Counted from the stretch's first letter, positions 1 through 18,566 are shown. The stretch: DNA of 64,000 bases from Gammaproteobacteria bacterium (GCA_033852155.1 JAWSVA010000004.1:7830-71829); one strand, 5' to 3'. Notes: generated from the letters alone by a model not told the origin. Made by a program: numbers and translations.

Positions 1-626
1 ATCCCTGATGTAACCATATCTTTGACTTGTGCCGAACTTAGCATCATATCCTGCGGCAATTCTACCCCGGCTATCTCAGCGAGTTTGGCAACCAGGTCTT
101 TACGCTGAGACATCTCTAGGTATTTAACTCCTAGGCGTATTTTATTAGCTACATTAATTCTTTTATTTTGTGTAGATAGGTCATAATTACCAGCAAACTC
201 AGCAGGAAATCCATCTGACTCAAACAGTTCAATGGTTTCATATTCTGTTCTGCGAATTGTTTCTATTATTGAATCATTCCACATTATGCCGCCATCAATG
301 AACCCGGAAGCGATAAAAAAGGTTGCAGGGAGATCCCATTTTTTAAGTATTGGCAGTGCAAGCGTGTAGTTATTGGCGTAGCCATCGTCAAAGGTCATTA
401 CGACACTTCTCGGTGGAAGCTGCCCTTTTTGCAACAACTCTACGGCTTGCTTTAAAGATAGGACATTAAAGTGTTTTGCTAGTATGGAGCATTGCCAATC
501 AAGCTCTGCCTGTGTAAAAGAGTCTACGTAAGGATCATTTTCTGAAGTTATGCGGTGGTAGTCGATAATACTCAAACGGCATCGACTCCCCCCTCTTAGT
601 GACAACTCAAGAATTTTATTTATCAT
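1..626 (-). CDS. Polysaccharide deacetylase (NodB/CE4 family), 3' end truncated by the window edge. The start codon is at 624-626.
   Basis: Manual minus-strand translation from the ATG at 626 gives MINKILELSLRGG...VVMTFDDGYANNYTLALPILKKWDLPATFFIASGFIDGG. The TFDDG motif is typical of NodB deacetylases. It is not in the ORF track because the 3' end runs off the window. Confidence 0.6.
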   Translation of the reverse strand, partial: MINKILELSLRGGSRCRLSIIDYHRITSENDPYVDSFTQAELDWQCSILAKHFNVLSLKQAVELLQKGQLPPRSVVMTFDDGYANNYTLALPILKKWDLPATFFIASGFIDGGIMWNDSIIETIRRTEYETIELFESDGFPAEFAGNYDLSTQNKRINVANKIRLGVKYLEMSQRKDLVAKLAEIAGVELPQDMMLSSAQVKDMVTSG

Positions 627-662: not shown

Positions 663-1985
663 TTAAACCAGTTTAGCACGCTTAAGCCCTTTTATTCCTC
701 GGCTTTTCCCTTGACGTTCATTTTCAATTGTTTTCTTAGACTCAAGCTGCTTTTTTACAATGCTCTCTGCAATTACCATAATGGCTATATAATGATAAGG
801 AAGGTCCCAATAAGCCATCCCTTTAAATGCACCGCCGATGGCCCAGCAGATCATGGCTATCTGCAGCATTGTCGCAAGATCCTTAGCCCAGGCTAAGTCT
901 TTATGCTCTCCAGCCAACTTTCTAATCTTGCCCCCTGTTATAAAACCAAAAAAGTTTAATAACAGGTACAGAATCAACCCTATAAATCCATGTTCACCTA
1001 AAACTTCAAAATAAATACTATGGGCATCACGCGCTATCTCCATCTCTTTATTATATTTTTCATAGGTTTTAAACGTGAACATCCTATAACCACCGCCAGT
1101 TAACGGGTGGTCTGTTGCAACCCATGTGGCAAGATACCAGGCATCGTAGCGCCCTTGCATTGAGAGATCCTCTTCATAGTCACCGATACTATCCATTCGT
1201 TGAAACCACTGCTGCGGCAAGACGTTATATGCTCCAATAGCTCCAATAGCAACCAGTAAAAAAATAACTTTTCTATGTTTGCTTAAATAAACCATCATGA
1301 AAAAACATGGGATTAAGGATATAAAAGCTCCTCGAGAATAAGATGCAATCACTGCCGCTGTACACAATCCCATGAACCCAAATAAACCAAAACGGATCCA
1401 TTTGTTATATGGTTGCAATTGTAAGTACCTGACCAAGGGAAGGATTAAAACTAACGCAATCGCTAACTCATTATTACCCGATATAAATGTATAATCAGGC
1501 CCCCAAACAAGATAATTCCCCCCTGTTGCTATCGCAAACAAACCACCTTTAACACCATAAAAACCTATGGATAAAACAATAACCCAAACCAATTGATTCA
1601 ATCTGTCTTTAGTATTTATTAGATATAAAGTAAGAAAAATTGCCAACTGTATTTTTAGCACCCTCATCCACTCTACATGTGCTAATTTTGGTTCAAAGGC
1701 GAACTGTGTGGTAATTGACATCCACACAACAAATAACAACAAAATAACAATCGCAGGTGTCCATGGTATCTTACGTTTCTCCATTTTATCTGGGCAAAAA
1801 ATAGCTGCAGCAATAGTAACTACGGCTATTACTAATGCGAATGGGAATGAATAAGCGAACCCATAGGTGAGGCGATGGGGACTCATATATCCAATCCAAG
1901 ACCACATTATTATTCCCAAATAGGGGCGATAAAAGATAAAGGGGATAGAACCAAAAACCGCCAGAAGAACTATTAGATCTCTCAT
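663..1985 (-). CDS. Polytopic membrane protein, O-antigen-ligase/Wzy_C-like. Resembles the exosortase-A-associated putative O-glycosylation ligase.
   Basis: 440 aa and highly hydrophobic, with about 10 or more predicted TM segments. It has a periplasmic loop of the kind seen in Wzy_C proteins. Its stop overlaps the upstream glycosyltransferase start by 4 nt, suggesting coupling. It is the last gene in the XrtA locus. Confidence 0.55.
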   Translation of the reverse strand: MRDLIVLLAVFGSIPFIFYRPYLGIIMWSWIGYMSPHRLTYGFAYSFPFALVIAVVTIAAAIFCPDKMEKRKIPWTPAIVILLLFVVWMSITTQFAFEPKLAHVEWMRVLKIQLAIFLTLYLINTKDRLNQLVWVIVLSIGFYGVKGGLFAIATGGNYLVWGPDYTFISGNNELAIALVLILPLVRYLQLQPYNKWIRFGLFGFMGLCTAAVIASYSRGAFISLIPCFFMMVYLSKHRKVIFLLVAIGAIGAYNVLPQQWFQRMDSIGDYEEDLSMQGRYDAWYLATWVATDHPLTGGGYRMFTFKTYEKYNKEMEIARDAHSIYFEVLGEHGFIGLILYLLLNFFGFITGGKIRKLAGEHKDLAWAKDLATMLQIAMICWAIGGAFKGMAYWDLPYHYIAIMVIAESIVKKQLESKKTIENERQGKSRGIKGLKRAKLV

Positions 1986-3208
1986 GAGCTTAATTTCCCA
2001 TCAATAATAGAAGTAAAGATATCCAGCTGGCCCTGAGTTGTTTGTCTCCAGCAATTTTCAGATCCAATCGCAGCCACTGTTTTCCTTTTCAACCCTTTAT
2101 TAAGCATTGTTCGTATTGCTTTGGTTAAAGCAGCATCGGTTCTATCATTTACTATTGTTCCGCATTCATCCGACAAGATCTCCGACACCCCACCTACATT
2201 TGTCGCCACTACTGGCGTTCCGCATGCAAGTGACTCTAATACTACATTGGGCATCCCCTCTCTACTAGATGCCAGCACCAATAGATCCGCTGAAGTATAA
2301 TAATCCCGTAACTGACTTTGTGATAAGTTTGAAATAAATCTTACACTATCAGATATCCTTAGATCAGCAGCCTGTTGTTGCAGGTTCTGCCTCTCCTCTC
2401 CATCACCAATTATAATTAAATTCACATTAGGTATTAGATTCGCATCAGACAATTTGGCAAGAGCAGCTATTACCAGATCAAATCCTTTTAACTTAGTAAG
2501 ATTACCAACAGATAAGATAGTATTTGGTTTGATATTTAACTTATTTCGTAAAATATTACGTTCATCAACCGATATGGGATGAAAAATTTCCTTATCCACT
2601 CCATTACGTAAAACATGGATTTTTTCCGCATCAACCCCTTTCGCAATTAGCTTTTGCCGTAGAGAATCTGCAACGGTAATTATGCTGTTGCTTTGTAGTG
2701 CTGATTTTTTAATCAATCTACCTGCTAACTGATAATCAGCAAATAGATTAACATCAGTTCCACGAGCCGTGATAACCAAAGGCTTATTTAGTTTTTTTGC
2801 CAAAATCGCAGCGGCAACACCATCTGGATAAAAATAGTGTGCATCGATAATATCAAAGTCAAAACCTTGGTTTATAAGACTTTTAACAACAGGTAGAGCA
2901 GCCCTTGCCATCATCATCGGGGTGATCGCGCCACCAAATTTTGGCAGGATAAAATACCTCGGATGATAAACATCTATACCGTTTAACGTTTCATGTTTTG
3001 GAACAGAATCAGATTCAGCATAACGTTTAAAAGCACCAGTTTTTATCGGAAAGGTTGCTATCGGAGCAACCACTTTGGTCTCTACCTGCTCTGATTTTAA
3101 TAGCTGACGCAGGCGTGTCTCAACGAATATGCCATGCCTGGGGCGCTGTGAATTTGGGTAGAGGGAGCTGAAAAGCAAGGTTTTGATCATTATACTCCTG
3201 AGCTCCAA
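1982..3208 (-). CDS. GT4-family (GT-B fold) glycosyltransferase
   Basis: 408 aa with a C-terminal EX7E-like region (SSREGMPNVVLESLACGTPVVATNVGG) typical of the RfaG/GT1 superfamily. Confidence 0.75.
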   Translation of the reverse strand: MELRSIMIKTLLFSSLYPNSQRPRHGIFVETRLRQLLKSEQVETKVVAPIATFPIKTGAFKRYAESDSVPKHETLNGIDVYHPRYFILPKFGGAITPMMMARAALPVVKSLINQGFDFDIIDAHYFYPDGVAAAILAKKLNKPLVITARGTDVNLFADYQLAGRLIKKSALQSNSIITVADSLRQKLIAKGVDAEKIHVLRNGVDKEIFHPISVDERNILRNKLNIKPNTILSVGNLTKLKGFDLVIAALAKLSDANLIPNVNLIIIGDGEERQNLQQQAADLRISDSVRFISNLSQSQLRDYYTSADLLVLASSREGMPNVVLESLACGTPVVATNVGGVSEILSDECGTIVNDRTDAALTKAIRTMLNKGLKRKTVAAIGSENCWRQTTQGQLDIFTSIIDGKLSS

Positions 3209-3416
3209 AGAAGTTTTTCAGGATAATAGGCTTTATATGCATTCCCACGCAGAGCATGGGAACGAGAAAAGTTCCCTGAGCGTAGCCGAAGGGTCGCCAT
3301 TCGTCCTGAGCCTGTCGAAGCATGATCAATGGGGTCAGAGTCAATGATTTTAAGATCCCTGAGCGTAGCCGAAGGGTCGAAAGAAAAAACATTGACTCTG
3401 ACCCCATTGATCTTAA
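3209..3416. repeat. Composite extragenic repeat element. It has a 23-bp perfect inverted repeat (3324-3346 and 3390-3412) and two direct copies of the 23-mer ccctgagcgtagccgaagggtcg (3274-3296 and 3357-3379), plus a degenerate third copy at 3301-3320.
   Basis: Read directly from the sequence. The element fills the gap between the asnB-like stop and the glycosyltransferase start. A related degenerate copy lies at 36203-36237. Confidence 0.7.
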
Positions 3417-5324
3417 TCATGCAAAAGTCTTCCTGCAAAATGCTTCAAACATTAACAGTGACCATAGCAGTGTACTAAAGTCACGCATTCCAGACTGGTG
3501 TTGTTCAACCAACCATTTAATATATTCCATATCAAATATTTCGGTATCAGCTAAAACTGGCCCCAACAGAGAATCACGCAAACGCTGTTTTAATGGGCCA
3601 CGAAACCACTCTGCCAACGGCACTGAAAACCCCATCTTTGGTCGATATAAAATTGAATCTGGAACCATTGGCTCTAGGGCTTTTTTAAAGATATATTTGC
3701 CTTCATTCCCTTTTACTTTGTATTCCGGCTTTATCCCAGATATCCACTCCACAAACTTGTGATCTAGAATAGGTACCCGCACTTCTAAACTGTGAGCCAT
3801 GCTGGCACGATCCACCTTAGTTAAAATATCACCAGGCAGGTAAGTTTTTAAATCGACATATTGAATACGGGAAAGGGAATCATCTTTTGGGCATTTATCC
3901 ATCTGTTCACGGAAAAACTGTTTAACGCTGTAGCCATTCAGATCTTGCTTAAACTTATTCGAGAATAACTTTCCACGCCATGCCTCTGGCACAAATGAAA
4001 CAGCATGCAGGTAGCCCTCTGCATCATCCATTGCCAATGACTGAAATGTAGATTTGGCACGAAACATCTGCGGCAACCAATCAAATTTAGGGTAGATTTT
4101 ACCCAAGAAACTAAATAACGGTCTTCGAATACAAGTAGGAATCTTATTGCGCACTTTGTTTTCATAAAATGCAAAACGATGGCGGCGATAACCAGACATC
4201 AGCTCATCTGCACCATCTCCTGAAAGAGATACGGTTACATGCTTACGCGCAAGTTCACAAACGCGATAGGTTGGAATAGCCGAGCTATCAGCATATGGTT
4301 CATCATAAATCGCTGCCAACTCATCGATCAGATCAAAATCATCAGCACCAACATGCTCAGAGTGATGATTAGTCTTATAGCGATCCGCTATCATCTGCGC
4401 ATATTCAGACTCATTAAATTTTTTACTTCCAAACGCAATCGAGCAGGTTTCTACCGGTTTGTCCGAAATCTTTGACATCAGAGCTACGATACCACTCGAA
4501 TCTACACCGCCTGATAAAAAAGCTCCAAGCGGTACATCAGCAATCATCCGCCCCTCAATTGCCTCACTTAACTTCTCAATGAGTTCTTTTTGGATCTCTT
4601 GCTCAGAAAGCTCAGAACCATTTTCTCCTACAAGATCTGCAAACGGAACATCCCAGTATTGGGTGATCTGCGGCTGTTTATCACCTAGTTTTATCTGCAA
4701 TAAATTACCAGGAGGCAGCTTATATACCCCGGTAAAAATAGTTTTGGGGTCTGGGATGTAACCAAGGGCAAAATAGTCCTCTACCGCTTGTATATCCATC
4801 TCACGTGAAACTGTTTTTTCAACCAGAAGAGATTTTAGCTCTGAGGCAAATAAAAAACGTCCATCTTCTAATACCGTATAAAAAATGGGCTTGATACCTA
4901 AACGGTCCCGAACTAGTGTGAGCTTTTGATCCCGTTTATCCCAAATTGCAAAGGCAAACATACCACGGAAGTGCTGAATACAATCCTCTTTCCAGGCATG
5001 CCAGGCATTTAGCATAACTTCGGTGTCCGACTTGGTATTAAACGCGTAACCTAGCTCTATTAACTCCTGCCTGACATCAGCAAAATTATAGGCCTCGCCG
5101 TTATAGACGAGAACCACTTGGTCATCCGCCGAGATCATGGGCTGCACGCCCCCGACTATATCTATAATAGAAAGGCGCCTATGCCCTAAAGCAATGCCTT
5201 GTTCCTGAAACACACCTTCGCCATCAGGACCTCGGTGAGTTTGAACATCATTCATCGCTTGCAACAAAGTGATATCGACCTGGCTTTCAGGTCTGGTCGC
5301 AAATATTCCTACAATCCCACACAC
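3417..5324 (-). CDS. Asparagine synthase (glutamine-hydrolysing) paralogue. This is the amidotransferase typically associated with XrtA/PEP-CTERM loci.
   Basis: It has the N-terminal MCGIVGI class-II glutamine amidotransferase Cys nucleophile and the SGGVDSS PP-loop ATP pyrophosphatase motif. It is 635 aa. It sits between glycosyltransferases in the exosortase locus. Confidence 0.8.
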   Translation of the reverse strand: MCGIVGIFATRPESQVDITLLQAMNDVQTHRGPDGEGVFQEQGIALGHRRLSIIDIVGGVQPMISADDQVVLVYNGEAYNFADVRQELIELGYAFNTKSDTEVMLNAWHAWKEDCIQHFRGMFAFAIWDKRDQKLTLVRDRLGIKPIFYTVLEDGRFLFASELKSLLVEKTVSREMDIQAVEDYFALGYIPDPKTIFTGVYKLPPGNLLQIKLGDKQPQITQYWDVPFADLVGENGSELSEQEIQKELIEKLSEAIEGRMIADVPLGAFLSGGVDSSGIVALMSKISDKPVETCSIAFGSKKFNESEYAQMIADRYKTNHHSEHVGADDFDLIDELAAIYDEPYADSSAIPTYRVCELARKHVTVSLSGDGADELMSGYRRHRFAFYENKVRNKIPTCIRRPLFSFLGKIYPKFDWLPQMFRAKSTFQSLAMDDAEGYLHAVSFVPEAWRGKLFSNKFKQDLNGYSVKQFFREQMDKCPKDDSLSRIQYVDLKTYLPGDILTKVDRASMAHSLEVRVPILDHKFVEWISGIKPEYKVKGNEGKYIFKKALEPMVPDSILYRPKMGFSVPLAEWFRGPLKQRLRDSLLGPVLADTEIFDMEYIKWLVEQHQSGMRDFSTLLWSLLMFEAFCRKTFA

Positions 5325-6535
5325 TATATTATTTTCCTTTGTGCAGTTTTCCCCTTCTCTTTTTCCAATACGCTTGAATAGAGATTGTCATATTTTGCTA
5401 CCATTGCAGCAAAACTAAAATTCTGTTGTATTCGCTCAATTGCATTCTTACCATGCTGCTGGCGTAACTGATCATCTTCTACATATTTATTCATTGCATC
5501 AGCCATCCACTTAGAATCAGAAGCCGGCACTATATATCCTGTTTTGCCATCATCAACTAGCTCGCGGTTACCACCAACATCAGTTGCAATTACTGGCAGT
5601 CCAGTAGCCATAGACTCTAATATAGTATTTGATATACCTTCAGCTAATGATGGTAAAACAAAAATATCTAGCTTATGTAAAATTGCTGGCACGTCATCTC
5701 TAGCCCCTGGCATCCAAACTAAATCTTGAATTGCGTTATCTTCAATAAGTTTTTCTGCAGGTGCAAACAAATTGCCATTCCCCACAAGAACCAAACGCAC
5801 TTTTTCTCTATGCTGCGGATGATTCTCAATAAAATGAACAAAGGCTCTGACCAATAGAAGGGTGTCCTTCACTTCCTCCATTCTGCCAACTGTTCCTATA
5901 ACAATTTTATCATCAAACTCTGCAGGATAACCTGCTACATTTGTTGTAACAGAAGGACTGAACCTTTCCGTGTCTACACCATTACATATACGCACAACTT
6001 TTTTAGAACTAATACCGACATCCTTAATCAACCAATTTTCTAAATCCATCGATAGAGCTGCGAAGCGATCAATAACTGGCGATAATAAACGACGTAAAAG
6101 CCGGTATTTTTTATTTGAGCCATCTATATCAATAGTATCTCTGCCATGCTCACTATGAATAATATATGGCACACCGGCTAAAAAGGCTGGCATTACAGCA
6201 TCCAGTGCTGGCAGGTTTCTGGTGTGTACAACCTTTGGCTTTAACTTTTTTAACATCCGATAAAGCTTAATGTAAATTTTTATATCTTTACCTGGGTGCT
6301 TATGCAGAGATATATATTCAACCTCACGGTTGGTTATACGATCTTTAAAGTGGGTGATCTCAGTGAGTGAAATCACAATATGACGATACTTATCCTGTGG
6401 CAGATTATTCAAAAGATTTACCACGCCGTTTTCCAACCCACCTACGTCGAGCCGAAAAAGCACGTGCGCAATTATTGGCCTGCTATCCACAATTTTTTTA
6501 TTTGCTATTATGCTTCCTGCACTACTACTATCCAT
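5324..6535 (-). CDS. GT4-family glycosyltransferase. This is a sugar transferase of the PEP-CTERM/EpsH1-associated type.
   Basis: 403 aa with a C-terminal PSLAEGISNTILESMATGLPVIATDVGG GT-B motif. Its start overlaps the xrtA stop. Confidence 0.75.
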   Translation of the reverse strand: MDSSSAGSIIANKKIVDSRPIIAHVLFRLDVGGLENGVVNLLNNLPQDKYRHIVISLTEITHFKDRITNREVEYISLHKHPGKDIKIYIKLYRMLKKLKPKVVHTRNLPALDAVMPAFLAGVPYIIHSEHGRDTIDIDGSNKKYRLLRRLLSPVIDRFAALSMDLENWLIKDVGISSKKVVRICNGVDTERFSPSVTTNVAGYPAEFDDKIVIGTVGRMEEVKDTLLLVRAFVHFIENHPQHREKVRLVLVGNGNLFAPAEKLIEDNAIQDLVWMPGARDDVPAILHKLDIFVLPSLAEGISNTILESMATGLPVIATDVGGNRELVDDGKTGYIVPASDSKWMADAMNKYVEDDQLRQQHGKNAIERIQQNFSFAAMVAKYDNLYSSVLEKEKGKTAQRKII

Positions 6536-8136
6536 TATCCATCCCTGCTAACTGTGAAAAGCAATGATTTAAGCTTATCTCTTGCCTCTTCAGCAGAAGA
6601 TTCAAGCTTTATGGTTAATACCTCGATGATCGCATCCGATCTTCTATCTAATACTATAGATCTCACCTGATTTAATTTAGTTCTAAGTTTTCCAGACGAG
6701 TTATATTTACCTGTTTTAATCCAGCTCCATACCAGCATCACACCCGAATTGCTTTTTAAGGTATTTTCCTGCACCTTAACATTAACTTCTCCAGCGCTGG
6801 TTTGCATTGGTACGTTAACTCCCCTTTCTGAGATGTTTTTCCAGACATCATCATCAAAAAGTTTATTGTTAACGTTTATTAGCTCTTTATTCTGGTTTTG
6901 CACAAAGTATTGAGCATTAGCATACCCAATCATAACTCCGTCTATAGCAAAACATCCAGCCTCCAACATATCGGCATTACGATGATTAAGGCCTATGCTA
7001 TTACATGGCTTTGCCACAAAATCAAGTTTACCTGCTGTATCATCAACAGGCCCTATCTTAGATATACTAATCTGTGCCTGTGGTTTTGACTTATCAACAT
7101 TAATCAACAATAGCAGGATCGTAGGCACTAATAAGATAACCGTGCAAATAGCAATGGATGTCTTAATTATTCCTCTTCTATTTGAAGCGAAATCATCTTG
7201 AGTTAATGACGCGGATTTATTGGCATCACCAGCAATATTTGAACTATTTCCACTTTCGCTATCTGTTGGTTTACCATCTTCGCGCCAAAAAGATCCAATC
7301 CAGAACATGACTAACATAACAACACCAAACCAAACCCAGCCATATATTATATGATCAAATCCGGTTGCATACTCCATGTCACTCAAATGGGCAATCATAA
7401 CTATGCCATAGGCGCGCAAACCATTAGCTACAATGGGGAATATTATCGAAAGGGCAATAAAAAGCAGGCGCCTTTTGGTTGATCTATAAGTAAGAAATGC
7501 ATAGAAATAACCTAACGCAATAGATGCTATAAGATAGCGTATACCACTACACGCTTTTACCACTTCAAAATTCCCAGAAGGGATCTCAAACATTAACCCC
7601 TCCCAATAAACTGGGATTCCGGTCAACTGTAACCCTTTTACTGCAAACCAAGCTGTGAATTGCATCAGCGAAGGAATAAGAAACTCACCCATCGGCACTG
7701 CAAATAACAGATATAACAATGGGTACCATACAGTGCGCGCAACTCTACAACCAAATACAGATAAAACCAACATTGGTAACATTGCAAATAATGAAAGCTG
7801 TTGTCCAACCGCAATTCCAGCAATACTAGCGAAAATCCAGAACAGCCCAAATATGGCAACTCCCAACACACCAAGATAACTAGTTGATGGGGTAAGTTTT
7901 AAACAATCAGATCGTTGACTCCAGATCATCCACGCTACGGCAGGTACAACAAACATACCGTGAATATAAGTATCTGATGCATCCCACCAGATCATCGCAG
8001 TAGCAATAATTGTCTGATGAAAAGCTACTATCAATAGTAATAACAATGCCACAAACACCTTGGCACTTATACTCCATGCCATGATATTTTTCCCGGCTAA
8101 CTCTGAAACTTCTTGTTTGGTTTGCATATTATCCAC
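6535..8136 (-). CDS. xrtA: Exosortase A (XrtA) fused to a C-terminal EpsI-family periplasmic domain.
   Basis: 533 aa. The N-terminal ~290 aa are a polytopic membrane domain carrying exosortase signature residues: a conserved Cys in VKACSGIRY, and Arg and His in the IVANGLRAYGIVMIAHL region. After that come one TM segment and a ~200 aa soluble domain, as in EpsI. A PEP-CTERM substrate gene lies 10 kb away in the same locus. Confidence 0.8.
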   Translation of the reverse strand: MDNMQTKQEVSELAGKNIMAWSISAKVFVALLLLLIVAFHQTIIATAMIWWDASDTYIHGMFVVPAVAWMIWSQRSDCLKLTPSTSYLGVLGVAIFGLFWIFASIAGIAVGQQLSLFAMLPMLVLSVFGCRVARTVWYPLLYLLFAVPMGEFLIPSLMQFTAWFAVKGLQLTGIPVYWEGLMFEIPSGNFEVVKACSGIRYLIASIALGYFYAFLTYRSTKRRLLFIALSIIFPIVANGLRAYGIVMIAHLSDMEYATGFDHIIYGWVWFGVVMLVMFWIGSFWREDGKPTDSESGNSSNIAGDANKSASLTQDDFASNRRGIIKTSIAICTVILLVPTILLLLINVDKSKPQAQISISKIGPVDDTAGKLDFVAKPCNSIGLNHRNADMLEAGCFAIDGVMIGYANAQYFVQNQNKELINVNNKLFDDDVWKNISERGVNVPMQTSAGEVNVKVQENTLKSNSGVMLVWSWIKTGKYNSSGKLRTKLNQVRSIVLDRRSDAIIEVLTIKLESSAEEARDKLKSLLFTVSRDG

Positions 8137-8190
8137 GCTAGGCTGTTACGCTATCCATTTTGTAAAACTGTATTATCTATACTCATAGAC

Positions 8191-9387
8191 TTAACCTTCT
8201 AGTAGGTCCACAACTTTGGCAACGTTACTTTGCCAGTTATAATTTTTCAAGATCATCTCGCGCCCTTTATCACCCCAAGACTTAGCTTGTGCATCATCTT
8301 GTAATAGTTCAGCTACTTTGTCTGCGTAGGTTTGAGCATCATCTATAGTTAGCTCAGAAAACTGTTCAATATCTTTAATCCCTTCCATAGCCTGGCTAGT
8401 TGCAACAACTGCTTTGCCCATCGACATAGCCTCCAGCACTTTATTTTGTACTCCGCGAGCAATTCGAAGTGGAGCAACAGATAGGTTAGAGTATTGAATA
8501 TAAGGGCGAACATCCTCCACTCTTCCAGTAACAGTTACTCCGGCAATATTACTTAAGGCATTTACTTTCGCAGTTGGCTTTGACCCAACGATAAAAAACT
8601 CCAAACCGGATATTTTTTGCTGTACTAACGGAAGAACTTCTTCAGCAAACCAAACAACAGCATCAACATTAGCCCAATAATCCATGGCCCCTGTAAATAC
8701 AATTTTAGGCGCTGCATTTACATATAGATTTCCTACATCAGAATTTGCAGTAAAAAATTCATAATCGACACCGTTATCAATGCTATGTACCTTCTCTGCC
8801 ACAGCTGGAACAAGCTCACGAAACAAAGCGCTCTCTTTTTCTGACACAAACAGGCTGTGATCGGCCTGCTGCGCAACCATCTTTTCCCATTCAAATAATT
8901 TTTTATATTCACGTTTATACAACCAACTGGCAGGCCATTTTTTGCGGCTACTATATTGGCGCCACTTGTCCGAATCAATATCAACAAAATCAACGACCAT
9001 TTTCAGATCAAAGCGGGTTGATGAAACAAATTGAGCCATTGCAGATGAGAAAACCAGAGTTTTATTGACCCCTTTTGCAATAACTTGCTCTACATAATCG
9101 GATAGCTCTTTACTTTGGTAGTATGGAATAGATAACGCATCTGCGGTAAGAAAACCTTTTAAGGATTTAATCTTGCTTACAAATGGATCAATCTCTATCG
9201 CACAAAAAGACTCGCACAAAGATGCAACATGCTCTTTATATTGCAGATCTTCTTTATCATCTATGAAGGTCGCTAAGTGAATCTTGTACTCTTTTCGCAA
9301 CTCATTTAAGAGATGATAAGACCTAATCTTATCTCCTTTATTTGGCGGATATGGAATACGGTGCGCAAGAAACAGCAACTCTTTCAT
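8191..9387 (-). CDS. Glycosyltransferase (GT-B fold) of the type associated with PEP-CTERM/exosortase systems.
   Basis: 398 aa. Position and fold-level motifs only; family recognition is weak. Confidence 0.6.
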   Translation of the reverse strand: MKELLFLAHRIPYPPNKGDKIRSYHLLNELRKEYKIHLATFIDDKEDLQYKEHVASLCESFCAIEIDPFVSKIKSLKGFLTADALSIPYYQSKELSDYVEQVIAKGVNKTLVFSSAMAQFVSSTRFDLKMVVDFVDIDSDKWRQYSSRKKWPASWLYKREYKKLFEWEKMVAQQADHSLFVSEKESALFRELVPAVAEKVHSIDNGVDYEFFTANSDVGNLYVNAAPKIVFTGAMDYWANVDAVVWFAEEVLPLVQQKISGLEFFIVGSKPTAKVNALSNIAGVTVTGRVEDVRPYIQYSNLSVAPLRIARGVQNKVLEAMSMGKAVVATSQAMEGIKDIEQFSELTIDDAQTYADKVAELLQDDAQAKSWGDKGREMILKNYNWQSNVAKVVDLLEG

Positions 9388-9420
9388 TTGACTACCCCTA
9401 ATAATATTTAAGGTTTAGGA

Positions 9421-10473
9421 TTATCCAAGATTTTTAGAGATCATTGGGCCAATAACGCGACAAAGACCAAGAGGCAACTTCTTCCAAGTATCGATAAAAA
9501 ATTTATACTTTGGATTATTAGGGTTAATCTCTGGCATCTTATCTGCTTTTACCAAATAGTATTGATACGGAAGCGGTTCTGGTACAAATCCCCAGTTCTT
9601 TTTAAAACTATAGGCCCCAGTTCCCTCTTTACTACGGCCAAAATCAAAAATTCTACACCCTTTTTCTGCTGCGCGACGCATCACTTCCCAATACATAAAA
9701 TCATTGCCTGCAAGTGATCGAGCAGAATCTTTACCACCGCCGTAATAAGGCAATACTGCATCACGAAAATAAAAATTCATAACACTGGCAACCACTTCAC
9801 CTTCATGGGTAATAGTTACTATTTCACACTTATCTTTAAATACATCTTTAAGAATCTGGAAATATTTTTTCGCAAAGACTGGAGTTCCCAATCTCCAAAC
9901 ACTAAAGGAATACGCATCAAAAAAACGTTCAATATCTTCGTCAATCTCACTTTGTAAGCCAGCTTTAATACCCTTACGCACCATCGCCCTTTGCTTGCGA
10001 GGGATAGCTGACATATTCTCATCGTCATCAGAGCTTATCTCTTTACTAAAGGTTACATACAGCTCTTTAGTTGGCCATTCTGGATTATTTATTTTCCGTT
10101 CACGCAGTTCAAGACTATCTACCTTTAGCTGATCCGCCAGTTTACAAGCCTGCTGTTCCAGTAATTCCCTTACATCATCAGAATCTGCTATTGCCCCACC
10201 ATATACAGTAAAAGGCATACTCACTAAATTATTACCAAATAACATACTCTTTACATGGCCGAGAGGAAGCACACCTACTATCTTGCCACTAGATTCTCCA
10301 TCCGCAACAGATTCGGCATAATACATATAAGTCTTATGACCAAAGGCCTTTTCAATAACTGCTTGCCACTCCGCTAAATGGAAAAAAGTGCCATCAGCAT
10401 TATTAGTGACGTATTGATTCCAATCCGCATATTTATCTTTAGTAAGTAGTTTTATCGCTAATGCTTCGTTCAT
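9421..10473 (-). CDS. FemAB-family (GNAT-fold) protein of the type associated with XrtA/PEP-CTERM systems.
   Basis: 350 aa cytoplasmic protein. It is the expected size and occupies the locus position of the exosortase-associated FemAB-like proteins. Recognition is by context and general composition and is moderate. Confidence 0.55.
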   Translation of the reverse strand: MNEALAIKLLTKDKYADWNQYVTNNADGTFFHLAEWQAVIEKAFGHKTYMYYAESVADGESSGKIVGVLPLGHVKSMLFGNNLVSMPFTVYGGAIADSDDVRELLEQQACKLADQLKVDSLELRERKINNPEWPTKELYVTFSKEISSDDDENMSAIPRKQRAMVRKGIKAGLQSEIDEDIERFFDAYSFSVWRLGTPVFAKKYFQILKDVFKDKCEIVTITHEGEVVASVMNFYFRDAVLPYYGGGKDSARSLAGNDFMYWEVMRRAAEKGCRIFDFGRSKEGTGAYSFKKNWGFVPEPLPYQYYLVKADKMPEINPNNPKYKFFIDTWKKLPLGLCRVIGPMISKNLG

Positions 10474-10485
10474 TCTAATCCTAAT

Positions 10486-11343
10486 TTATTTATTAAGGTC
10501 TACGCGCGGCTTATCTTCTGGCTGTAAGAAAATATTATCCATCCGGTCCCAATCAAAATCCTGTAACAATCTACCTAATCTTTTTTCCATTCGACTAAGA
10601 TTAGTATAGTGCCTAAACTTAGTCTTAAAGTTAGTTCCTTCTTGTCTTGGCTGCTCAGGGTCTATCTCCCACGGATGAAAATAGAAAACAGACGCCTGTT
10701 TATCAACTTTATTTACTTTATTTATTGCGCGCTTAGACCAAAAATATGGCAACAAGCGAAAATAACCTCCGCCACCACAAGGAAAATTATTCCCCAACAC
10801 CTTAGTTGTAGTTACTGGAACTTCGATAAGATCCAGATCATTTGGTAAAAATGCAAAGCGTGGTGCATCAGGCATCCCATAAAGATCGTGGTGAATCGGA
10901 TATATACTTGAGCTATATTTATGCCCAGTTTCCTGCAATATATCTAATGCCCACAAATTCTTTGTTCCAATGGAGTAGCTCGGAGCCCTATAACCTTTTA
11001 TCTCTGTACCAGATAAATCCTCCAACAGCTTTTTGGTCTTTATAATATCTTCTCTAAATTCATCTTTAGTCATCTTGATGATACGAACATGATCCCAACC
11101 ATGACTAGCAAGCTCATGCCCCTGCTCAACAATTCTTTTAATTAACTGAGGATATCTATGGGCCACCCAACCAAGTACGAAAAATGTTGCTTTAACACCA
11201 TGCTGTGAAAATAGCTGCAGCGCTTTATCGGTATTTTGCTCTACACGACATGGTAATCTCTCCCAATCAGATCGATCGATTACATTTTCAAAGGCTGAAA
11301 CCTGAAAATAATCTTCTATATCAATGGTCATAGCATTTTTCAT
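10486..11343 (-). CDS. Polysaccharide deacetylase (NodB family) of the XrtA-locus type.
   Basis: 285 aa. MTIDIEDYFQ at the N-terminus and the HGWDH motif match the NodB/CE4 catalytic motifs. Confidence 0.7.
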   Translation of the reverse strand: MKNAMTIDIEDYFQVSAFENVIDRSDWERLPCRVEQNTDKALQLFSQHGVKATFFVLGWVAHRYPQLIKRIVEQGHELASHGWDHVRIIKMTKDEFREDIIKTKKLLEDLSGTEIKGYRAPSYSIGTKNLWALDILQETGHKYSSSIYPIHHDLYGMPDAPRFAFLPNDLDLIEVPVTTTKVLGNNFPCGGGGYFRLLPYFWSKRAINKVNKVDKQASVFYFHPWEIDPEQPRQEGTNFKTKFRHYTNLSRMEKRLGRLLQDFDWDRMDNIFLQPEDKPRVDLNK

Positions 11344-11397: not shown

Positions 11398-12534
11398 TTA
11401 AGACAATTGCTCTAACCACTGCGATAGGTGTGCAGCAATACGTTTAGCAGTATTTCCATCCCAATATTCTGGAATACGCCCTGCCTTTCCTTTTCCTTCC
11501 ATCACCTGGTCAAAAGTTTTAAGTATCAGCTCACGATCTGTACCAACAATTGTATTGGTACCATCGGTAGCGGTAATAGGTCTTTCAGTGGATTCTCGCA
11601 GAGTTACACAAGGTACACCAAGAGCCGTTGTCTCCTCCTGAATCCCTCCAGAATCAGTCAATACAACCTTTGCCCCTTGCATCAATCCCAGCATATCTAG
11701 ATATCCAGCTGGAGGTATTCGCAGGATAGAATCAGTCTGTAATAACCCCTCTAACCCAAATATCTCAATTTTTGATGCTGTACGCGGATGAACTGGAAAT
11801 ACGATAGGGATGCGTTTACTGATTGTATTCATTGTTTCCAATAAACCACGTAAAGTAGCCTCATCATCCACATTAGATGGGCGATGCAGGGTTAAAATCG
11901 CATAACTTCCATTTTCCCCTGTGAATTTTTCCCCTCCACCGTTGTTTGCAAATATTTGCTGCGCTGGAGTTGCCTGTTCTAAGTTATTACGCAAGGTATC
12001 AATCATCACATTACCAACGAACTGCACTTTCTTGCCAGCAATCCCCTCTTGAGCTAGGTTATCTGCTGCTTCACGCTCAGTGGTATAAAGTAAGTCAGAT
12101 AGTTGATCTGTAAGTATTCTATTAATCTCTTCCGGCATAGTGCGATCGCGACTACGCAATCCTGCCTCAACATGAATAACAGGAATATTTTTTTTCGCAG
12201 CGACTAAACCACAAGCAACAGTTGAATTAACATCCCCGACAACTAACACTGCTGCAGGATTATGTTTATCAACTTCGGGCTCAAATCTTTTCATTATATC
12301 TGCAGTTTGTACTGCATGAGAGCCTGAACCAACACCAAGATCAACATCAGGTTTTGGAATTCCAAGTTGATCAAAAAATGTTTTTTTCATCGCCTCATCA
12401 TAGTGCTGTCCTGTATGTACCAAAACAGCGTTTATTTGACTATTTTCTCTATTAAATTCAGCCATTAATGGAGCTATTTTCATAAAATTTGGTCTAGCTC
12501 CAACCACACACATAACTGTTTTATTTTTTTCCAC
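11398..12534 (-). CDS. wecB: UDP-N-acetylglucosamine 2-epimerase (non-hydrolysing)
   Basis: 378 aa with the characteristic MKIAPL...HTGQHYD...RPNFMK and HVEAGLRS motifs. Confidence 0.85.
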   Translation of the reverse strand: MEKNKTVMCVVGARPNFMKIAPLMAEFNRENSQINAVLVHTGQHYDEAMKKTFFDQLGIPKPDVDLGVGSGSHAVQTADIMKRFEPEVDKHNPAAVLVVGDVNSTVACGLVAAKKNIPVIHVEAGLRSRDRTMPEEINRILTDQLSDLLYTTEREAADNLAQEGIAGKKVQFVGNVMIDTLRNNLEQATPAQQIFANNGGGEKFTGENGSYAILTLHRPSNVDDEATLRGLLETMNTISKRIPIVFPVHPRTASKIEIFGLEGLLQTDSILRIPPAGYLDMLGLMQGAKVVLTDSGGIQEETTALGVPCVTLRESTERPITATDGTNTIVGTDRELILKTFDQVMEGKGKAGRIPEYWDGNTAKRIAAHLSQWLEQLS

Positions 12535-12590: not shown

Positions 12591-13694
12591 TTAATTACCG
12601 CCATCTTGGTTAGAGCCAAACTGTTTGCGAATATTTCCAAATAAGATTTCATGAAGATATTCAATTTTCATCTCCAGTTTATTAACTTTTTTCTCTAATC
12701 CTTCTATCTTTTCTTCAGCCCCTTCAAGTGCTGCTGAAGTTATGGCCTTATATTCATCGTAATTTCTTTGCGGTGTACCAGGCTTGGTCTTTTTACTTGA
12801 TTCAGATGATTCCGCAATACACTTATCAAAAAACCGCTCCGAAATATCTACATCATCTTTTTGTGACTCATGAGTTATAGCAAGCATTTCCCCTTTTAGC
12901 TCATTAACAACTCTTATCGTTACATCGCTATTAAAGTGATCAAGCTCTTCAATCGCACCAAGCAATAGCAGCCTATTACACAATCTATTAATTTTACGAG
13001 GGATACCGCCAGAGTTTTCAAAAATTGACCTTAAAGCATCATCAGCAAACTCTGGCCTACTCTTCCAGCCAGATTTAATTAAACGATAAAGAATATAGTC
13101 CTTTGTCTCTTCTGAACTTAATGGTTCTAGATGGCAAGAAGCTATTATTCTTTGCCGAAACTGCTCCATAGATTCATGCCCAAGCAAATACTGTAGTTCA
13201 ATCTGCCCCAATAAAAAGCACTGTAATACTGGCTTACCTTTATAACTTATATTAGAAAGCATACGCAGCTCTTCTAAACCTGATAACGACAAATTCTGAG
13301 CTTCGTCAATTACAAGCAATACTCTCTTTCCATCTTTAGAAACCTTAAACAGATACTCTTCAAGCTTGCCAATTGCTTGAGGTTTTGTCAGCCCTTTACT
13401 ATCAATTTTCAAGGCTGAGCAAACCATATATGGGATATCATCCCCATCTAACTGAGTTGTAACAATTCTTGAAGCTATAACTGGACCAAACTCTAATACT
13501 GAAAACAACCTTTCAACCAAGGTTGTTTTACCAGTACCAATATCGCCAGTAATAACAATAAAACCTTCACCTTGCTTTAATCCATATTGGAGATAAGCGA
13601 ACCCTTGCTTATGTACCTTGCTACCAAAAAACAGGTCCATATTTGGAGTTAGTTGAAAAGGGTTGCCTTTAAATCCGTAAAAATCTTCGTACAT
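12591..13694 (-). CDS. AAA-type ATPase (ExeA-like) of the XrtA/PEP-CTERM-associated type.
   Basis: 367 aa. The Walker A motif is GDIGTGKTT and Walker B is LLVIDEAQNL. There is a C-terminal coiled-coil tail. Confidence 0.65.
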   Translation of the reverse strand: MYEDFYGFKGNPFQLTPNMDLFFGSKVHKQGFAYLQYGLKQGEGFIVITGDIGTGKTTLVERLFSVLEFGPVIASRIVTTQLDGDDIPYMVCSALKIDSKGLTKPQAIGKLEEYLFKVSKDGKRVLLVIDEAQNLSLSGLEELRMLSNISYKGKPVLQCFLLGQIELQYLLGHESMEQFRQRIIASCHLEPLSSEETKDYILYRLIKSGWKSRPEFADDALRSIFENSGGIPRKINRLCNRLLLLGAIEELDHFNSDVTIRVVNELKGEMLAITHESQKDDVDISERFFDKCIAESSESSKKTKPGTPQRNYDEYKAITSAALEGAEEKIEGLEKKVNKLEMKIEYLHEILFGNIRKQFGSNQDGGN

Positions 13695-13739
13695 ATTTGT
13701 TCCGCAAGCAATAGTCTGAATGCTTTATGATTAATACAA

Positions 13740-15182
13740 TTAATATTTCAGCTCAGCCCCAACAGTAAATTTTGCCTGTTTATATTCAAAAGCGGCTTCT
13801 GTGCCATCACGAATTCCTGCTTGAACAGCAGTATACCAGATTGCTTTTTTACTCATGTTTCTAGTGTATTTCAATGAGTAAGTGCTCATATCATCTAATC
13901 TATCATTTAAATCATCTCCAAGCCTCCACCATCTTAGGTTAGCTCTGATATTTGATTTACTTGATAGGGTATAATCCCACTGAATATCTGCCCCAATAAA
14001 AATCTCATTCTGCCCTAAATTTCTATAAATTCGATCTTCGTATTTCAAGGTTAAATCGATACTGTTTTTTACACCCTCAACATTCCAGGTGAGACGTGTT
14101 TTTTTCTGTACATAGACATCACTTTCTCCACGATAAAACTTATATAAACGTTCATCAACAAGCTGATCTGTAATATCCTGAGTTACTCGATTTACCTGCT
14201 GTTCGCTATAACTTAGGCTTAATGCAGTTTTATTATTTTCATAGCTGAAACTTGCAAGATATGTGTCACCATAAAGGTCTTCCCCACCACCAAACTCAAG
14301 CTTTGTTCTAGTTGATAGCGAGTAAGCAATTTTTGCATCCCAAACATTACCTTCAAACCAGGAATAATTGGTAGATGAGCTAAGCCGCTCCCATTTCTTC
14401 CCAAGCATAATATAAAATATAGCTCTATTAAAAATAGGGTAACTAGATACCAAATCTACTTGTCTATATTCTGAAGCATTAAAGCCTTCAGTTTGTATAT
14501 ATTCGAAGCTGGAATTAATATTCCAATTAAACAATGCTGATCTAGATGCTGTGCCAAATGATACAATCGCATCATGCTCTTCAACATCATCGATTCCTCG
14601 ATCATAATATATTTTTCCGTGCGACGATGAATAACTAACGCCTAAATCACCAGATATCGGCAGTACAAACCTAGGCTTAATCTGCCCAGTATATTTATTA
14701 GCGCTGTTGGCGCCATAGATCAATCCATCAAATGATATTGCATCTTCAGCATCTATTACTTCACTTTCATGTGAGACATAAAAATCAGTAAAAAACCTAT
14801 CCCTGATTAACTCAACCCCAAGATCACCTCTTAGCAGATGTTGCATGTCATTCATACCGCTATTTTTGGCGTACATATACCCCGAAGCTCTATAATCCAT
14901 ATAGGCATTAACTCTACGGCCTTGGCTCTTAAGGTTCACAAAAGGCGAAACTAATAGATAGCTATCTGATTCACGTTGCGCAGCCCCAATATCAACATTA
15001 TCTGTAAAAACATATTCTGAGGTAACCCCAGCATTAAGCTCCAACTTTTTTGCATATATGGTTGTTGAAAATAAAAGCAGTAAAACCACAACTGATTTAT
15101 TAACGAATACAAATGGGTTTTTAATTAAATAAACCACGGCATTCCCTCGTCTATTTATATTGTCTTCTATATGATGAACCAT
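13740..15182 (-). CDS. Putative outer-membrane beta-barrel protein of the PEP-CTERM-system-associated type.
   Basis: 480 aa. A hydrophobic signal-like segment VVVLLLLFSTTIYA lies near the N-terminus. The composition is rich in alternating aromatic residues and ends in a terminal ...AELKY (aromatic C-terminus). The annotated start overlaps the upstream gene by 32 nt, so the true start may be further downstream. Confidence 0.5.
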   Translation of the reverse strand: MVHHIEDNINRRGNAVVYLIKNPFVFVNKSVVVLLLLFSTTIYAKKLELNAGVTSEYVFTDNVDIGAAQRESDSYLLVSPFVNLKSQGRRVNAYMDYRASGYMYAKNSGMNDMQHLLRGDLGVELIRDRFFTDFYVSHESEVIDAEDAISFDGLIYGANSANKYTGQIKPRFVLPISGDLGVSYSSSHGKIYYDRGIDDVEEHDAIVSFGTASRSALFNWNINSSFEYIQTEGFNASEYRQVDLVSSYPIFNRAIFYIMLGKKWERLSSSTNYSWFEGNVWDAKIAYSLSTRTKLEFGGGEDLYGDTYLASFSYENNKTALSLSYSEQQVNRVTQDITDQLVDERLYKFYRGESDVYVQKKTRLTWNVEGVKNSIDLTLKYEDRIYRNLGQNEIFIGADIQWDYTLSSKSNIRANLRWWRLGDDLNDRLDDMSTYSLKYTRNMSKKAIWYTAVQAGIRDGTEAAFEYKQAKFTVGAELKY

Positions 15183-16134
15183 AGTAAGGATTTGAATTTC
15201 TTGTCCTTGATTTATTTAAAACAAGATTAACAATATCGTTATCATCCAGTATATCAACTGCTTTTTTTACATTTTCATGAGAGGTTGAGTAAGACTCAAC
15301 AACCAATACAACCTGCCCAACAATGTCAGCTAAAACCTTTGCTTCACTTGTAATAAGAAGAGGAGGTGAATCCAGAATAACAGCACGATCATTATATCTT
15401 TGTGAAATCTCATCTATAAGCGATAGCATTGCGCTACTTGCAAGAATTTCAGTTGCTTTTTCATGCCCGCTTCCTGCTGGTAGTATTACTAGGTTTTCAA
15501 TATTAGTTTTAACCAATACGTCGGTCATTTTAATAGTGTCATCAACCAATAAATCAATTAGCCCCGGTAAATCAGGGTCCAAACCAAGATATTCACTTAT
15601 CGATGGTTTAGGAATATCTGCATCGATAAGCAAAACCGTTGTATCCATCTCTGTAGCCATGCTCATAGCCAAGTTAATTGATGTAAAAGTTTTCCCTTCA
15701 CCAGGTAAGGCACTAGTTACCATTATAATATTAGAGTTATCGAACTCTTTAGATGCTGCCCCAAATGCATTATTTAGAATAGGCCTTTTAATAATTCTAA
15801 ACTCTTCAACTAAAGAATTATCATCTCTACTTGAAGTGATAATATTTTTGCTTTCAAGCTTACGCAAATCAATTTTCTGAGGTTTTGCGCTAGTTATGAT
15901 ATTTGATTCGCTTTCAGCCGCAATCTGACTTTGTCTATTAGCCGAATTAGAGTTATCTTTATTTTTGGAAGCTTTTCCCGGCTCATTCCAAAATTCAGCT
16001 GGATTTAACTCATCATTATATTCTTCTTCAATACGTTTACGATAATCTTGCTGATCTTTTTGTTCATCTACACTTGAACTTTCAGCTGAACCACTCTTTT
16101 TTAGTTTGTTAAATGCATTTTCTATAGTGCTCAT
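15151..16134 (-). CDS. BY-kinase ATPase subunit. This is the Wzc C-terminal-like tyrosine autokinase (EpsG type).
   Basis: 327 aa. It has Walker A ALPGEGKTFTSINLA, Walker A' VLLIDADIPKPS and Walker B VILDSPP. The C-terminal tail is Tyr-rich: PYYGSSYRRQYK. Confidence 0.7.
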   Translation of the reverse strand: MSTIENAFNKLKKSGSAESSSVDEQKDQQDYRKRIEEEYNDELNPAEFWNEPGKASKNKDNSNSANRQSQIAAESESNIITSAKPQKIDLRKLESKNIITSSRDDNSLVEEFRIIKRPILNNAFGAASKEFDNSNIIMVTSALPGEGKTFTSINLAMSMATEMDTTVLLIDADIPKPSISEYLGLDPDLPGLIDLLVDDTIKMTDVLVKTNIENLVILPAGSGHEKATEILASSAMLSLIDEISQRYNDRAVILDSPPLLITSEAKVLADIVGQVVLVVESYSTSHENVKKAVDILDDNDIVNLVLNKSRTRNSNPYYGSSYRRQYK

Positions 16135-16135
16135 A

Positions 16136-17752: not shown

Positions 17753-17780
17753 TATTTATATACGCTCTCGTTAGAGTATT

Positions 17781-18404: not shown

Positions 18405-18538
18405 CTACTATACGATAAATGAACAAAAAGAGATTATTTAGCCTACAACATTAACAATAAAAAAGTTACGGACAACATTCCATGATTCTGCCGCACTTAA
18501 TAGAATAAGAATAATTTAGAAATCTACTTTTAGCAATT

Positions 18539-18566
18539 AAAAAAGGCTGCATAAGCAGCCTTTTTA
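18539..18566. terminator. Rho-independent, apparently bidirectional terminator immediately after the PEP-CTERM gene.
   Basis: The hairpin aaggctgc-ataa-gcagcctt is flanked by an A-run (18539-18544) and a T-run (18561-18565). Confidence 0.6.

Follow-up and report, generated by a model that had tools for sequence, protein, structure and literature searches.

The 64,000-nucleotide stretch of DNA analyzed here (the window) most likely carries the downstream half of a canonical exosortase A (XrtA/PEP-CTERM) exopolysaccharide operon. In this operon three soluble cytoplasmic enzymes, namely a CE4 deacetylase, a FemAB-like protein and an AsnB-like amidotransferase, would tailor one amino sugar of a nucleotide- or undecaprenyl-linked precursor, with GT4 glycosyltransferases and a WaaL-fold membrane protein assembling the glycan. 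We place the probability of this reading at about 0.65, taking the identity of the locus and the roles of the enzymes jointly. Its basis is what was directly seen: family membership, folds, intact catalytic motifs, a predicted cytoplasmic location and a conserved gene order.

All of the reading frames flagged in the original prediction were confirmed on the minus strand, at 663-1985, 3417-5324, 9421-10473 and 10486-11343, with a partial frame at 1-626. The locus genes lie on one strand and are closely spaced or overlapping. The exosortase gene (6535..8136, minus strand) encodes XrtA fused to a C-terminal EpsI domain (TIGR03109, 329 bits against 208; EpsI_fam model, 43.6 bits against a cut-off of 42.8), with the motifs CSG at 196, ANGLR at 237 and DHIIYGW at 261. 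Two GT4 glycosyltransferases flank it on the same strand, stp1 at 8191..9387 (TIGR03087, 513 bits, cut-off 317) and stp2 at 5324..6535 (TIGR03088, 516 bits, cut-off 409), the latter overlapping both the XrtA and the amidotransferase genes by 1 nt each. A third GT4 glycosyltransferase (1982..3208, minus strand) varies between loci, with a median of 33% identity to its homologues in related loci; it is weakly TuaC-like (209 bits against the TuaC cut-off of 550), and its gene shares its last 4 nt with the start of the O-ligase-like gene. It was noted that a palindromic element of 208 nt sits between the amidotransferase gene and the next glycosyltransferase gene.

Upstream, at 11398..12534 on the minus strand, lies WecB, a non-hydrolysing UDP-GlcNAc 2-epimerase (300 bits, cut-off 210), which probably supplies a ManNAc-type precursor. 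The remainder of the same XrtA locus occupies 12591..22258, also on the minus strand, and includes the ATPase TIGR03015 (score just under cut-off), the outer-membrane protein TIGR03016, a tyrosine autokinase, a chain-length determinant, a Wza-like export protein, a single PEP-CTERM protein (18586-19344) and the TPR lipoprotein PrsT (19514-22258). At the other end, the locus had been described as ending with the O-antigen-ligase-like gene, which proved incorrect: the second deacetylase comes next, followed by a ParE/RelB toxin-antitoxin pair on the opposite strand. No UDP-sugar dehydrogenase, Wzx, priming transferase or PrsK/PrsR was found in the 64,000-nt window, the rest of which consists of housekeeping genes (fab genes, holB, tmk, lolA, chemotaxis and flagellar genes, and tilS). 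An Rfam scan of 1-24800 gave no match above the gathering threshold, and sigma-70 promoter and terminator sites were no commoner than in shuffled sequence, leaving the operon boundaries undefined by that scan.

We compared the gene order with that of 80 related genome loci, and its retention across them indicates that this grouping did not arise by chance. The XrtA-system deacetylase gene immediately precedes the FemAB-like gene in 68 of 76 related loci, XrtA lies downstream of the latter in 56/64, the amidotransferase is found downstream in 49/55, and WecB lies no more than 4 kb upstream in 37 of 69, with a median identity of 62%. Within the locus, conservation is highest for the CE4 deacetylase, the FemAB-like protein and the amidotransferase (median identity 56-62%), compared to only 33-36% for XrtA, the chain-length determinant and the variable GT4. 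Such conservation suggests a conserved chemical product. Although the original prediction called these enzymes unusual, they constitute the canonical, curated and highly conserved accessory set of XrtA loci.

The amidotransferase (3417..5324, minus strand) matches TIGR03108 at 989.4 bits against 816.9, and the match spans residues 1-632 of 635. Located two genes downstream of XrtA, it combines an N-terminal Cys2 glutaminase domain with a PP-loop adenylating domain (Pfam GATase_7 and Asn_synthase), and retains C2, R49, N74-G-E76, D98, SGGVDSS at 271 and LSGDGxDE at 367; the Cys2 glutaminase residues and the PP-loop are kept across 54 orthologues. It shares with WbpS, the uronamide-forming enzyme of the P. 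aeruginosa O6 antigen, and with housekeeping AsnB the two-domain architecture of class II glutamine amidotransferases, including the PP-loop synthetase domain and the catalytic residues. However, it is longer than AsnB (635 against about 554 aa), and in the alignment the Glu of the E. coli AsnB motif SGEGSDE, which we take to be the catalytic Glu348, is replaced by Asp. The glutamine-dependent amidation originally proposed for this AsnB paralogue is well matched by its family assignment and predicted chemistry. In Rubrivivax, a transposon insertion in the orthologous gene lowers aggregation (PMC3684757).

The FemAB-like protein (9421..10473, minus strand) is a FemAB-fold tandem-GNAT protein that matches TIGR03019 at 489.8 bits against 260.35. 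Pfam assigns Acetyltransf_6 together with a marginal pass for FemAB (27.5 bits, cut-off 24). The AF2 model (pLDDT 91.9) matched FemX in Foldseek with an E-value of 6e-17 (TM 0.69/0.72), so that a FemAB fold, whose absence would have counted against the original assignment, was indeed found. Further matches were FemA, Sbb17 and Sba18; the last two are among its nearest relatives of solved structure, their entries being aminoacyl-tRNA-dependent peptide synthases complexed with the aminosugar-containing streptothrisamine. The tandem-GNAT FemAB fold is shared with FemX/FemA/FemB, Sbb17 and Sba18 at a TM of about 0.7, whereas the sequence is only 13-19% identical to theirs. A conserved FKK motif lines up with the S. 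aureus FemX sequence, and the acetyl-CoA motif [QR]xxGx[GA] was absent from the protein. With more than 8000 database relatives, its nearest named one is from an uncultured gammaproteobacterial MAG (83% identity). From sequence and model, it is predicted to be a cytoplasmic aminoacyl-tRNA-dependent aminoacyl transferase, in keeping with the aminoacyl transfer first suggested for it; since FemAB-fold proteins are tandem GNATs, an acyl-CoA donor is also compatible with the sequence.

Both proteins could in principle be housekeeping enzymes, the first an asparagine synthetase and the second a FemX-type enzyme of the peptidoglycan cross-bridge. The amidotransferase does pass the broad model TIGR01536 (asn_synth_AEB; 507 against 267), far under its TIGR03108 score, and the Pfam FemAB pass noted above points the same way. 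Nevertheless, it missed the AsnB equivalog model (PRK09431, NF006949; 298.7 bits against a cut-off of 499), which sets it apart from the housekeeping asnB whose presence had been named as a refutation, and its best solved relative is not AsnB (144 bits for the E. coli enzyme) but the hydroxyamidotransferase 7ylz (211 bits). The FemX profile model gave the FemAB-like protein 31.5 bits against a cut-off of 500, and in dozens of genomes the two genes are part of the XrtA operon. On these scores and the gene context, the housekeeping readings were rejected as scarcely credible. To our knowledge, Gram-negative proteobacteria make no interpeptide bridges. Because the peptidoglycan of this organism needs no cross-bridge, the acceptor of the FemAB-like protein is presumably an amino sugar.

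As originally noted, two CE4 deacetylases are present, each with a NodB domain, the one at 1-626 being partial at the window edge. The XrtA-system polysaccharide deacetylase (CE4a; 10486..11343, minus strand) matches TIGR03006 at 450.8 bits against 276.2, and its gene is separated by 12 nt from the FemAB-like gene downstream of it. Pfam assigns it Polysacc_deac_1 (PF01522, NodB; 85 bits) and DUF3473, and it matches solved CE4 structures. The metal-binding and catalytic residues D8-x-E10-D11, H81-x3-H85, R119 and H223 are kept in at least 97% of 74 orthologues; motif 1 was placed at D8-x-E-D by inference, because that region is unaligned to the solved structures. The second protein (CE4b; 1..626, minus strand) is a generic NodB-type CE4 deacetylase of which the window holds the N-terminal 208 of 321 aa. 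Its full-length sequence, taken from a contig bearing an identical O-ligase-like protein, scored 88 bits with PF01522 and carries the motifs TFDDG and HTCFH. It passed none of the curated specific families and had no similarity to CE4a in a pairwise comparison, with a weak match to the oligosaccharide deacetylase HfsH; homologues follow the O-ligase-like gene in 10 related loci.

CE4a, CE4b, the FemAB-like protein and the amidotransferase all lack a predicted signal peptide and membrane segment, and CE4a is likewise predicted to be cytoplasmic. This makes a glycan precursor in the cytoplasm, rather than an exported protein, the probable target of these four enzymes, the likely substrate being a nucleotide-linked or lipid-linked sugar. 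The original prediction had allowed for modification of either the polymer or the PEP-CTERM protein. Its named chemistries, which are amidation, aminoacyl transfer, de-N-acetylation and glycan ligation or polymerisation, stand; its protein target does not fare as well, as the enzymes appear to be cytoplasmic. That they amidate, aminoacylate or glycosylate the PEP-CTERM polypeptide itself is very improbable. Some AsnB-like enzymes do act on peptides, and the lasso-peptide cyclase model scored 233 bits, under its cut-off of 525; however, the TIGR03108 score is far above those of peptide-modifying models, and the cargo carries a Sec signal peptide and its processing takes place at the membrane or in the periplasm, whereas the enzymes are predicted to be cytoplasmic and ATP- or tRNA-dependent. 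Direct modification is unlikely because they carry no export signals, the FemAB-like protein needing aminoacyl-tRNA and the amidotransferase ATP and glutamine.

The preferred precursor-tailoring reading can be set out as a pathway, its substrates, step order and amino acid drawn by analogy from VimE, VimA, WbpS, FemX and Sbb17. CE4a would strip the N-acetyl group from a ManNAc-type or GlcNAc-type sugar, probably supplied via the adjacent WecB. The FemAB-fold enzyme would then acylate the freed amine with an amino acid from aminoacyl-tRNA, and the AsnB-like enzyme would amidate a carboxylate, most likely that of a uronic acid, at the expense of glutamine and ATP. A UDP-sugar dehydrogenase-like ORF, judged from N-terminal sequence among clustered unassigned ORFs, lay within 10 kb in only 3 of the 80 related loci; as the window holds none either, this carboxylate substrate lacks a local source. 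The oligosaccharide may be assembled by stp1, stp2 and the variable GT4, and after flipping the WaaL-fold membrane protein would polymerise or ligate the lipid-linked unit at the periplasmic face. CE4b may deacetylate a further residue.

The membrane protein in question (663..1985, minus strand) is polytopic and matches TIGR03097 at 489 bits against a cut-off of 188. It comprises DUF5935 and a Wzy_C domain, adopts the same fold as the O-antigen ligase WaaL, and carries the motif H322-S-x9-G-x2-G. Compared to WaaL (PDB 7tpg/7tpj), it is 14-16% identical and has the DUF5935 region as an N-terminal addition; its top structural matches included no Wzy polymerase. The PF04932 family contains both ligases and polymerases, and this protein may be either. 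There is only slightly less than an even chance that it is the Wzy-type repeat-unit polymerase of the exopolysaccharide, which would make the name O-glycosylation ligase a misnomer: it is the sole polytopic polymerase candidate in a locus with a chain-length determinant and a Wza-like exporter, and in Rubrivivax a transposon-hit membrane protein of the same locus was labelled wzy (PMC3684757).

On balance we consider it unlikely that the tailored sugar is a mere decoration of the secreted exopolysaccharide, one whose free amines, aminoacyl groups and amides tune charge, cohesion and adhesion and which has no part in PEP-CTERM attachment. Deacetylation has a comparable effect on PNAG or the Caulobacter holdfast. 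The rest of the locus resembles a Wzy-type pathway (chain-length determinant, tyrosine kinase and Wza-like exporter), and the HfsH match of CE4b is in line with decoration, as are the VimA/VimE-like gene pairs of species without an exosortase (Veith et al., PMC7468200) and the flocs of Aquincola, which PEP-CTERM protein and exopolysaccharide give together, with no covalent link demonstrated. However, in most loci the three enzyme families occur alongside XrtA, and a variable decoration would not be expected to depend on genes so much better conserved than the polymer-specific ones.

Compared with the XrtA/PEP-CTERM system described by Haft et al. 2006 (PMC1569441), all flagged genes except CE4b pass the curated cut-offs of their NCBIfam/TIGRFAM families (the families compared were TIGR03097, TIGR03108, TIGR03019, TIGR03006, TIGR03087, TIGR03088 and TIGR03109). 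The gene order is common to dozens of Beta- and Gammaproteobacteria, including Nitrosomonas, Thiobacillus, Methylococcales, Massilia and Rubrivivax. Minor differences from catalogued loci are the XrtA-EpsI fusion, the 208-nt palindromic element and the place of CE4b in no curated family; PrsK/PrsR, the priming transferase and Wzx are absent from the window. The locus is an ordinary member of a known, biochemically uncharacterised system and adds no feature beyond those catalogued. The original remark that the chemistry of these families is essentially uncharacterised holds for the literature that could be searched, in which we found no biochemical characterisation of any enzyme from them. In wastewater and environmental bacteria, XrtA systems are the basis of floc and biofilm formation, and what exosortases attach PEP-CTERM proteins to has been a question since the system was described in 2006; the flagged enzymes are the best candidates for making that acceptor.

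A close parallel is the Wbp/Vim linking-sugar pathway of P. gingivalis and Tannerella forsythia (VimE, VimA, WbpS/PGN_1234 and VimF), with which the locus shares a CE4 enzyme, a TIGR03019-like transferase, an AsnB-like amidotransferase and neighbouring GT4s; the likeness to VimA, VimE and WbpS is as reported in PMC7468200. In P. gingivalis, VimE (a CE4 enzyme), VimA and PGN_1234/WbpS make 2-N-seryl-3-N-acetylglucuronamide, the sugar through which type IX secretion cargo is attached to lipopolysaccharide (PMC7468200). Veith et al. reported that VimA matches TIGR03019 and that the asparagine synthases of XrtA loci match PGN_1234 and TIGR03108, and an equivalent role for XrtA loci was put forward as a hypothesis in 2020 (PMC7468200). 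The WbpA/B/D/E genes for the 2,3-diacetamido uronic acid were absent from the window, in which only WecB is present. Each system includes a transpeptidase for C-terminal sorting; in the present locus it is XrtA and in the type IX system PorU, and the two are unrelated. By analogy we tentatively suggest, at rather less than even odds, that CE4a, the FemAB-like protein, the amidotransferase and WecB build, on the lipid-linked glycan, an N-aminoacyl (uron)amide sugar whose free alpha-amine resolves the XrtA acyl-enzyme, covalently tethering PEP-CTERM proteins to the polysaccharide. If this is true, the long-sought exosortase acceptor would be identified, and XrtA would act as PorU does in attaching type IX cargo to A-LPS.

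The minus strand was found to carry every large ORF between positions 1 and 22258, with tight or overlapping spacing, and the ORF and Pfam check recovered the flagged genes exactly as the original prediction described them. The deacetylase CE4a (10486-11343, minus strand, 285 aa) contained Polysacc_deac_1 and DUF3473 domains and matched the TIGR03006 deacetylase family at 451 bits (NCBIfam cut-off 276). It was followed by the FemAB-like gene (9421-10473, minus strand, 350 aa; Acetyltransf_6 and FemAB, the latter 27.5 bits vs a Pfam cut-off of 24), which matched the FemAB family TIGR03019 at 490 bits (cut-off 260). The AsnB paralogue (3417-5324, minus strand, 635 aa) combined glutamine amidotransferase and Asn_synthase domains (Pfam) and matched the amidotransferase family TIGR03108 at 989 bits (cut-off 817), and the ligase-like protein (663-1985, minus strand, 440 aa; DUF5935 and Wzy_C in Pfam) matched TIGR03097, a putative O-glycosylation ligase, at 489 bits (cut-off 188). 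Also on the minus strand, NCBIfam assigned stp1 (8191-9387; TIGR03087, 513 bits, cut-off 317), the exosortase XrtA with a fused EpsI domain (6535-8136; TIGR03109, 329 bits, cut-off 208), and stp2 (5324-6535; TIGR03088, 516 bits, cut-off 409). All seven of these NCBIfam families are ones curated for exosortase A systems. The upstream part of the locus encoded WecB, the system ATPase, a TIGR03016 outer-membrane protein, a tyrosine autokinase, a chain-length determinant, an export protein, one PEP-CTERM protein, and the TPR lipoprotein PrsT, while the remainder of the window consisted of housekeeping genes.

Several individual features of these genes were also noted. XrtA is a 533-aa protein with the EpsI domain at its C-terminal end, and a comparable EpsI-like tail could be detected in just 7 of 64 related loci. 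The system ATPase (12591-13694) scored 319.6 bits, slightly below the TIGR03015 cut-off of 324.5, and extended approximately 100 residues past the C-terminal end of that model. The ORF directly upstream of PrsT (22366-23175, minus strand, 269 aa) matched no Pfam or NCBIfam family.

We compared the locus with 80 loci from GTDB species genomes, retrieved by a FemAB-like protein profile; among them were Methylococcales, Nitrosomonas, Thiobacillus, Massilia, Halioglobus, and Ectothiorhodospiraceae. In 68 of the 76 loci with enough flank, CE4a immediately preceded the FemAB-like gene; XrtA (56/64, same strand) and the amidotransferase (49/55) lay downstream, and WecB was located at most 4 kb upstream in 37/69. 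The FemAB-like protein has more than 8000 database relatives and the ligase-like protein approximately 5100, many of them already bearing XrtA-system names. The predicted cluster of unusual modifying enzymes is therefore real and not unusual, as this conserved order and these thousands of relatives mark it as the normal make-up of XrtA loci. By median identity to the window, the locus genes with the highest conservation were the modifying enzymes, with 60% for CE4a, 56% for the amidotransferase, and 56% for the FemAB-like protein (biased upward by its use in choosing the loci, which leaves the other medians unaffected), alongside WecB at 62%; XrtA (36%), the chain-length determinant (34%), and the variable GT4 (33%) followed. 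Such a distribution suits a conserved chemical product more than it does a variable decoration. It was also observed that 16 of the 80 loci encoded a protein of approximately 353 aa (e.g., 16726-17787 of locus L079), judged from its sequence to be CapK-like or coenzyme-F390-synthetase-like and absent from the window, which would give some versions of the system a further carboxylate-activating enzyme. CapK is also listed in the Rubrivivax locus (PMC3684757).

The AlphaFold model of the FemAB-like protein (pLDDT 91.9) matched W. viridescens FemX in the structure search (E 6e-17; TM 0.69/0.72). The next matches were the aminoacyl-tRNA-dependent peptide synthases Sbb17 and Sba18, then S. aureus FemX and FemA, with aminoacyl-phosphatidylglycerol synthases ranking later. 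An invariant F290-K291-K motif aligned with the FKK of S. aureus FemX in the family profile, and a search of the protein for an acetyl-CoA motif returned none. The anticipated FemAB fold was thus confirmed. The amidotransferase did not reach the cut-off of the housekeeping AsnB equivalog model (299 bits vs 499), and among solved structures its best relative was the hydroxyamidotransferase 7ylz, which scored 211 bits where E. coli AsnB scored 144. By these scores the gene is therefore not a housekeeping asnB, as the original prediction had anticipated. Across 54 orthologues we found conservation of Cys2, R49, N74-G-E76, D98, and the SGGVDSS PP-loop, together with a family-specific LSGDGxDE at residues 367-374 (at least 97% conserved). 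Its Asp replaces the Glu found in E. coli AsnB (SGEGSDE) and in 7ylz, and the motif could mark a change in how the substrate is handled.

CE4a retained D8-x-E10-D11, H81-x3-H85, R119, and H223 in 74 orthologues. No signal peptides or hydrophobic segments were detected in CE4a, the second deacetylase CE4b, the FemAB-like protein, or the amidotransferase, whereas the PEP-CTERM protein carried a signal peptide and a C-terminal IPEP-helix-RKRK tag. Aminoacyl-tRNA, ATP, and glutamine are found in the cytoplasm, and the enzymes should accordingly act, ahead of export, on a nucleotide-linked or lipid-linked sugar and not on the exported cargo. By analogy, we consider it reasonably probable (roughly two chances in three) that the three soluble enzymes tailor a cytoplasmic glycan precursor: an amino sugar would be de-N-acetylated, the freed amine aminoacylated from aminoacyl-tRNA, and a carboxylate amidated with glutamine as donor. 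More tentatively, the aminoacyl amine might serve as the acceptor for XrtA transpeptidation, a step that we regard as somewhat improbable. The window contained neither a UDP-sugar dehydrogenase nor a Wbp gene, Wzx and a priming transferase were likewise not found in it, and dehydrogenases were rare in the related loci (3/80), so the carboxylate substrate has no local explanation. A predicted -24/-12 sigma-54-type element, TGGTATGGTTGTTGC, was located at approximately 19396-19410 on the minus strand, some 50-65 nt before the start codon of the PEP-CTERM gene (18586-19344). This candidate is consistent with a report from Aquincola that PEP-CTERM genes are expressed in an RpoN-dependent manner (PMC9850573).

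Possibly the ligase-like protein is no more than the Wzy polymerase, as it is the sole polytopic candidate in a Wzy-type locus. No Wzy polymerase appeared among its top structural matches, and the fold therefore does not decide between ligase and polymerase. Its gene had been taken as the end of the locus, which proved incorrect. Positions 1-626 (minus strand) encode the N-terminal 208 residues of CE4b, whose full 321 aa were read from a contig with an identical ligase-like protein (L001), where the next genes, on the opposite strand, are a ParE/RelB pair; the locus therefore ends after CE4b. That ParE toxin and RelB/RHH antitoxin pair (L001 3602-4155) marks the downstream boundary. CE4b is a generic NodB protein that matched no curated family and showed no pairwise similarity to CE4a.

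A 208-nt spacer (3209-3416, minus strand) separates the amidotransferase gene from the variable GT4 gene; in the nearest relative these genes abut and the spacer is absent. It contains a perfect inverted repeat of approximately 23 bp and a third hairpin, and CGACCCTTCGGCTACGCTCAGGGA occurs in it as an exact direct repeat (3273-3296 and 3356-3379); the predicted RNA fold is -86.7 kcal/mol (z = -8.7), and Rfam gave no match. A 19-nt piece recurs outside the window, to its left (L001 4295-4313). From its sequence, the spacer resembles a REP- or MITE-like insertion within the operon.

Overall, the original observation was confirmed and its interpretation supported in part. Full-text literature searches found no biochemical study of the XrtA-associated families, in agreement with the claim that their chemistry is uncharacterised, and the window locus is an ordinary further example of a bioinformatically well-defined, biochemically uncharacterised system. 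In Zoogloea and Aquincola, flocs need PEP-CTERM proteins as well as exopolysaccharide, and PepA undergoes processing (PMC9850573). The core gene order of the window locus is shared by Rubrivivax gelatinosus, in which disruption of the amidotransferase orthologue by a transposon weakened aggregation (PMC3684757). In P. gingivalis, the three-step chemistry proposed above was shown genetically and by mass spectrometry for VimE, VimA, and WbpS (PGN_1234), the product being 2-N-seryl-3-N-acetylglucuronamide, the sugar linked to type IX secretion cargo (PMC7468200). For PGN_1234, the change from amide to acid was seen as a mass shift of about +1 Da. According to those authors, VimA matches TIGR03019, and both PGN_1234 and TIGR03108 are matched by the asparagine synthases of XrtA loci; production of a similar compound by exosortase loci was their speculation (PMC7468200). 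The mechanistic reading of greatest interest had been put forward in 2020 and is not peculiar to the window locus.
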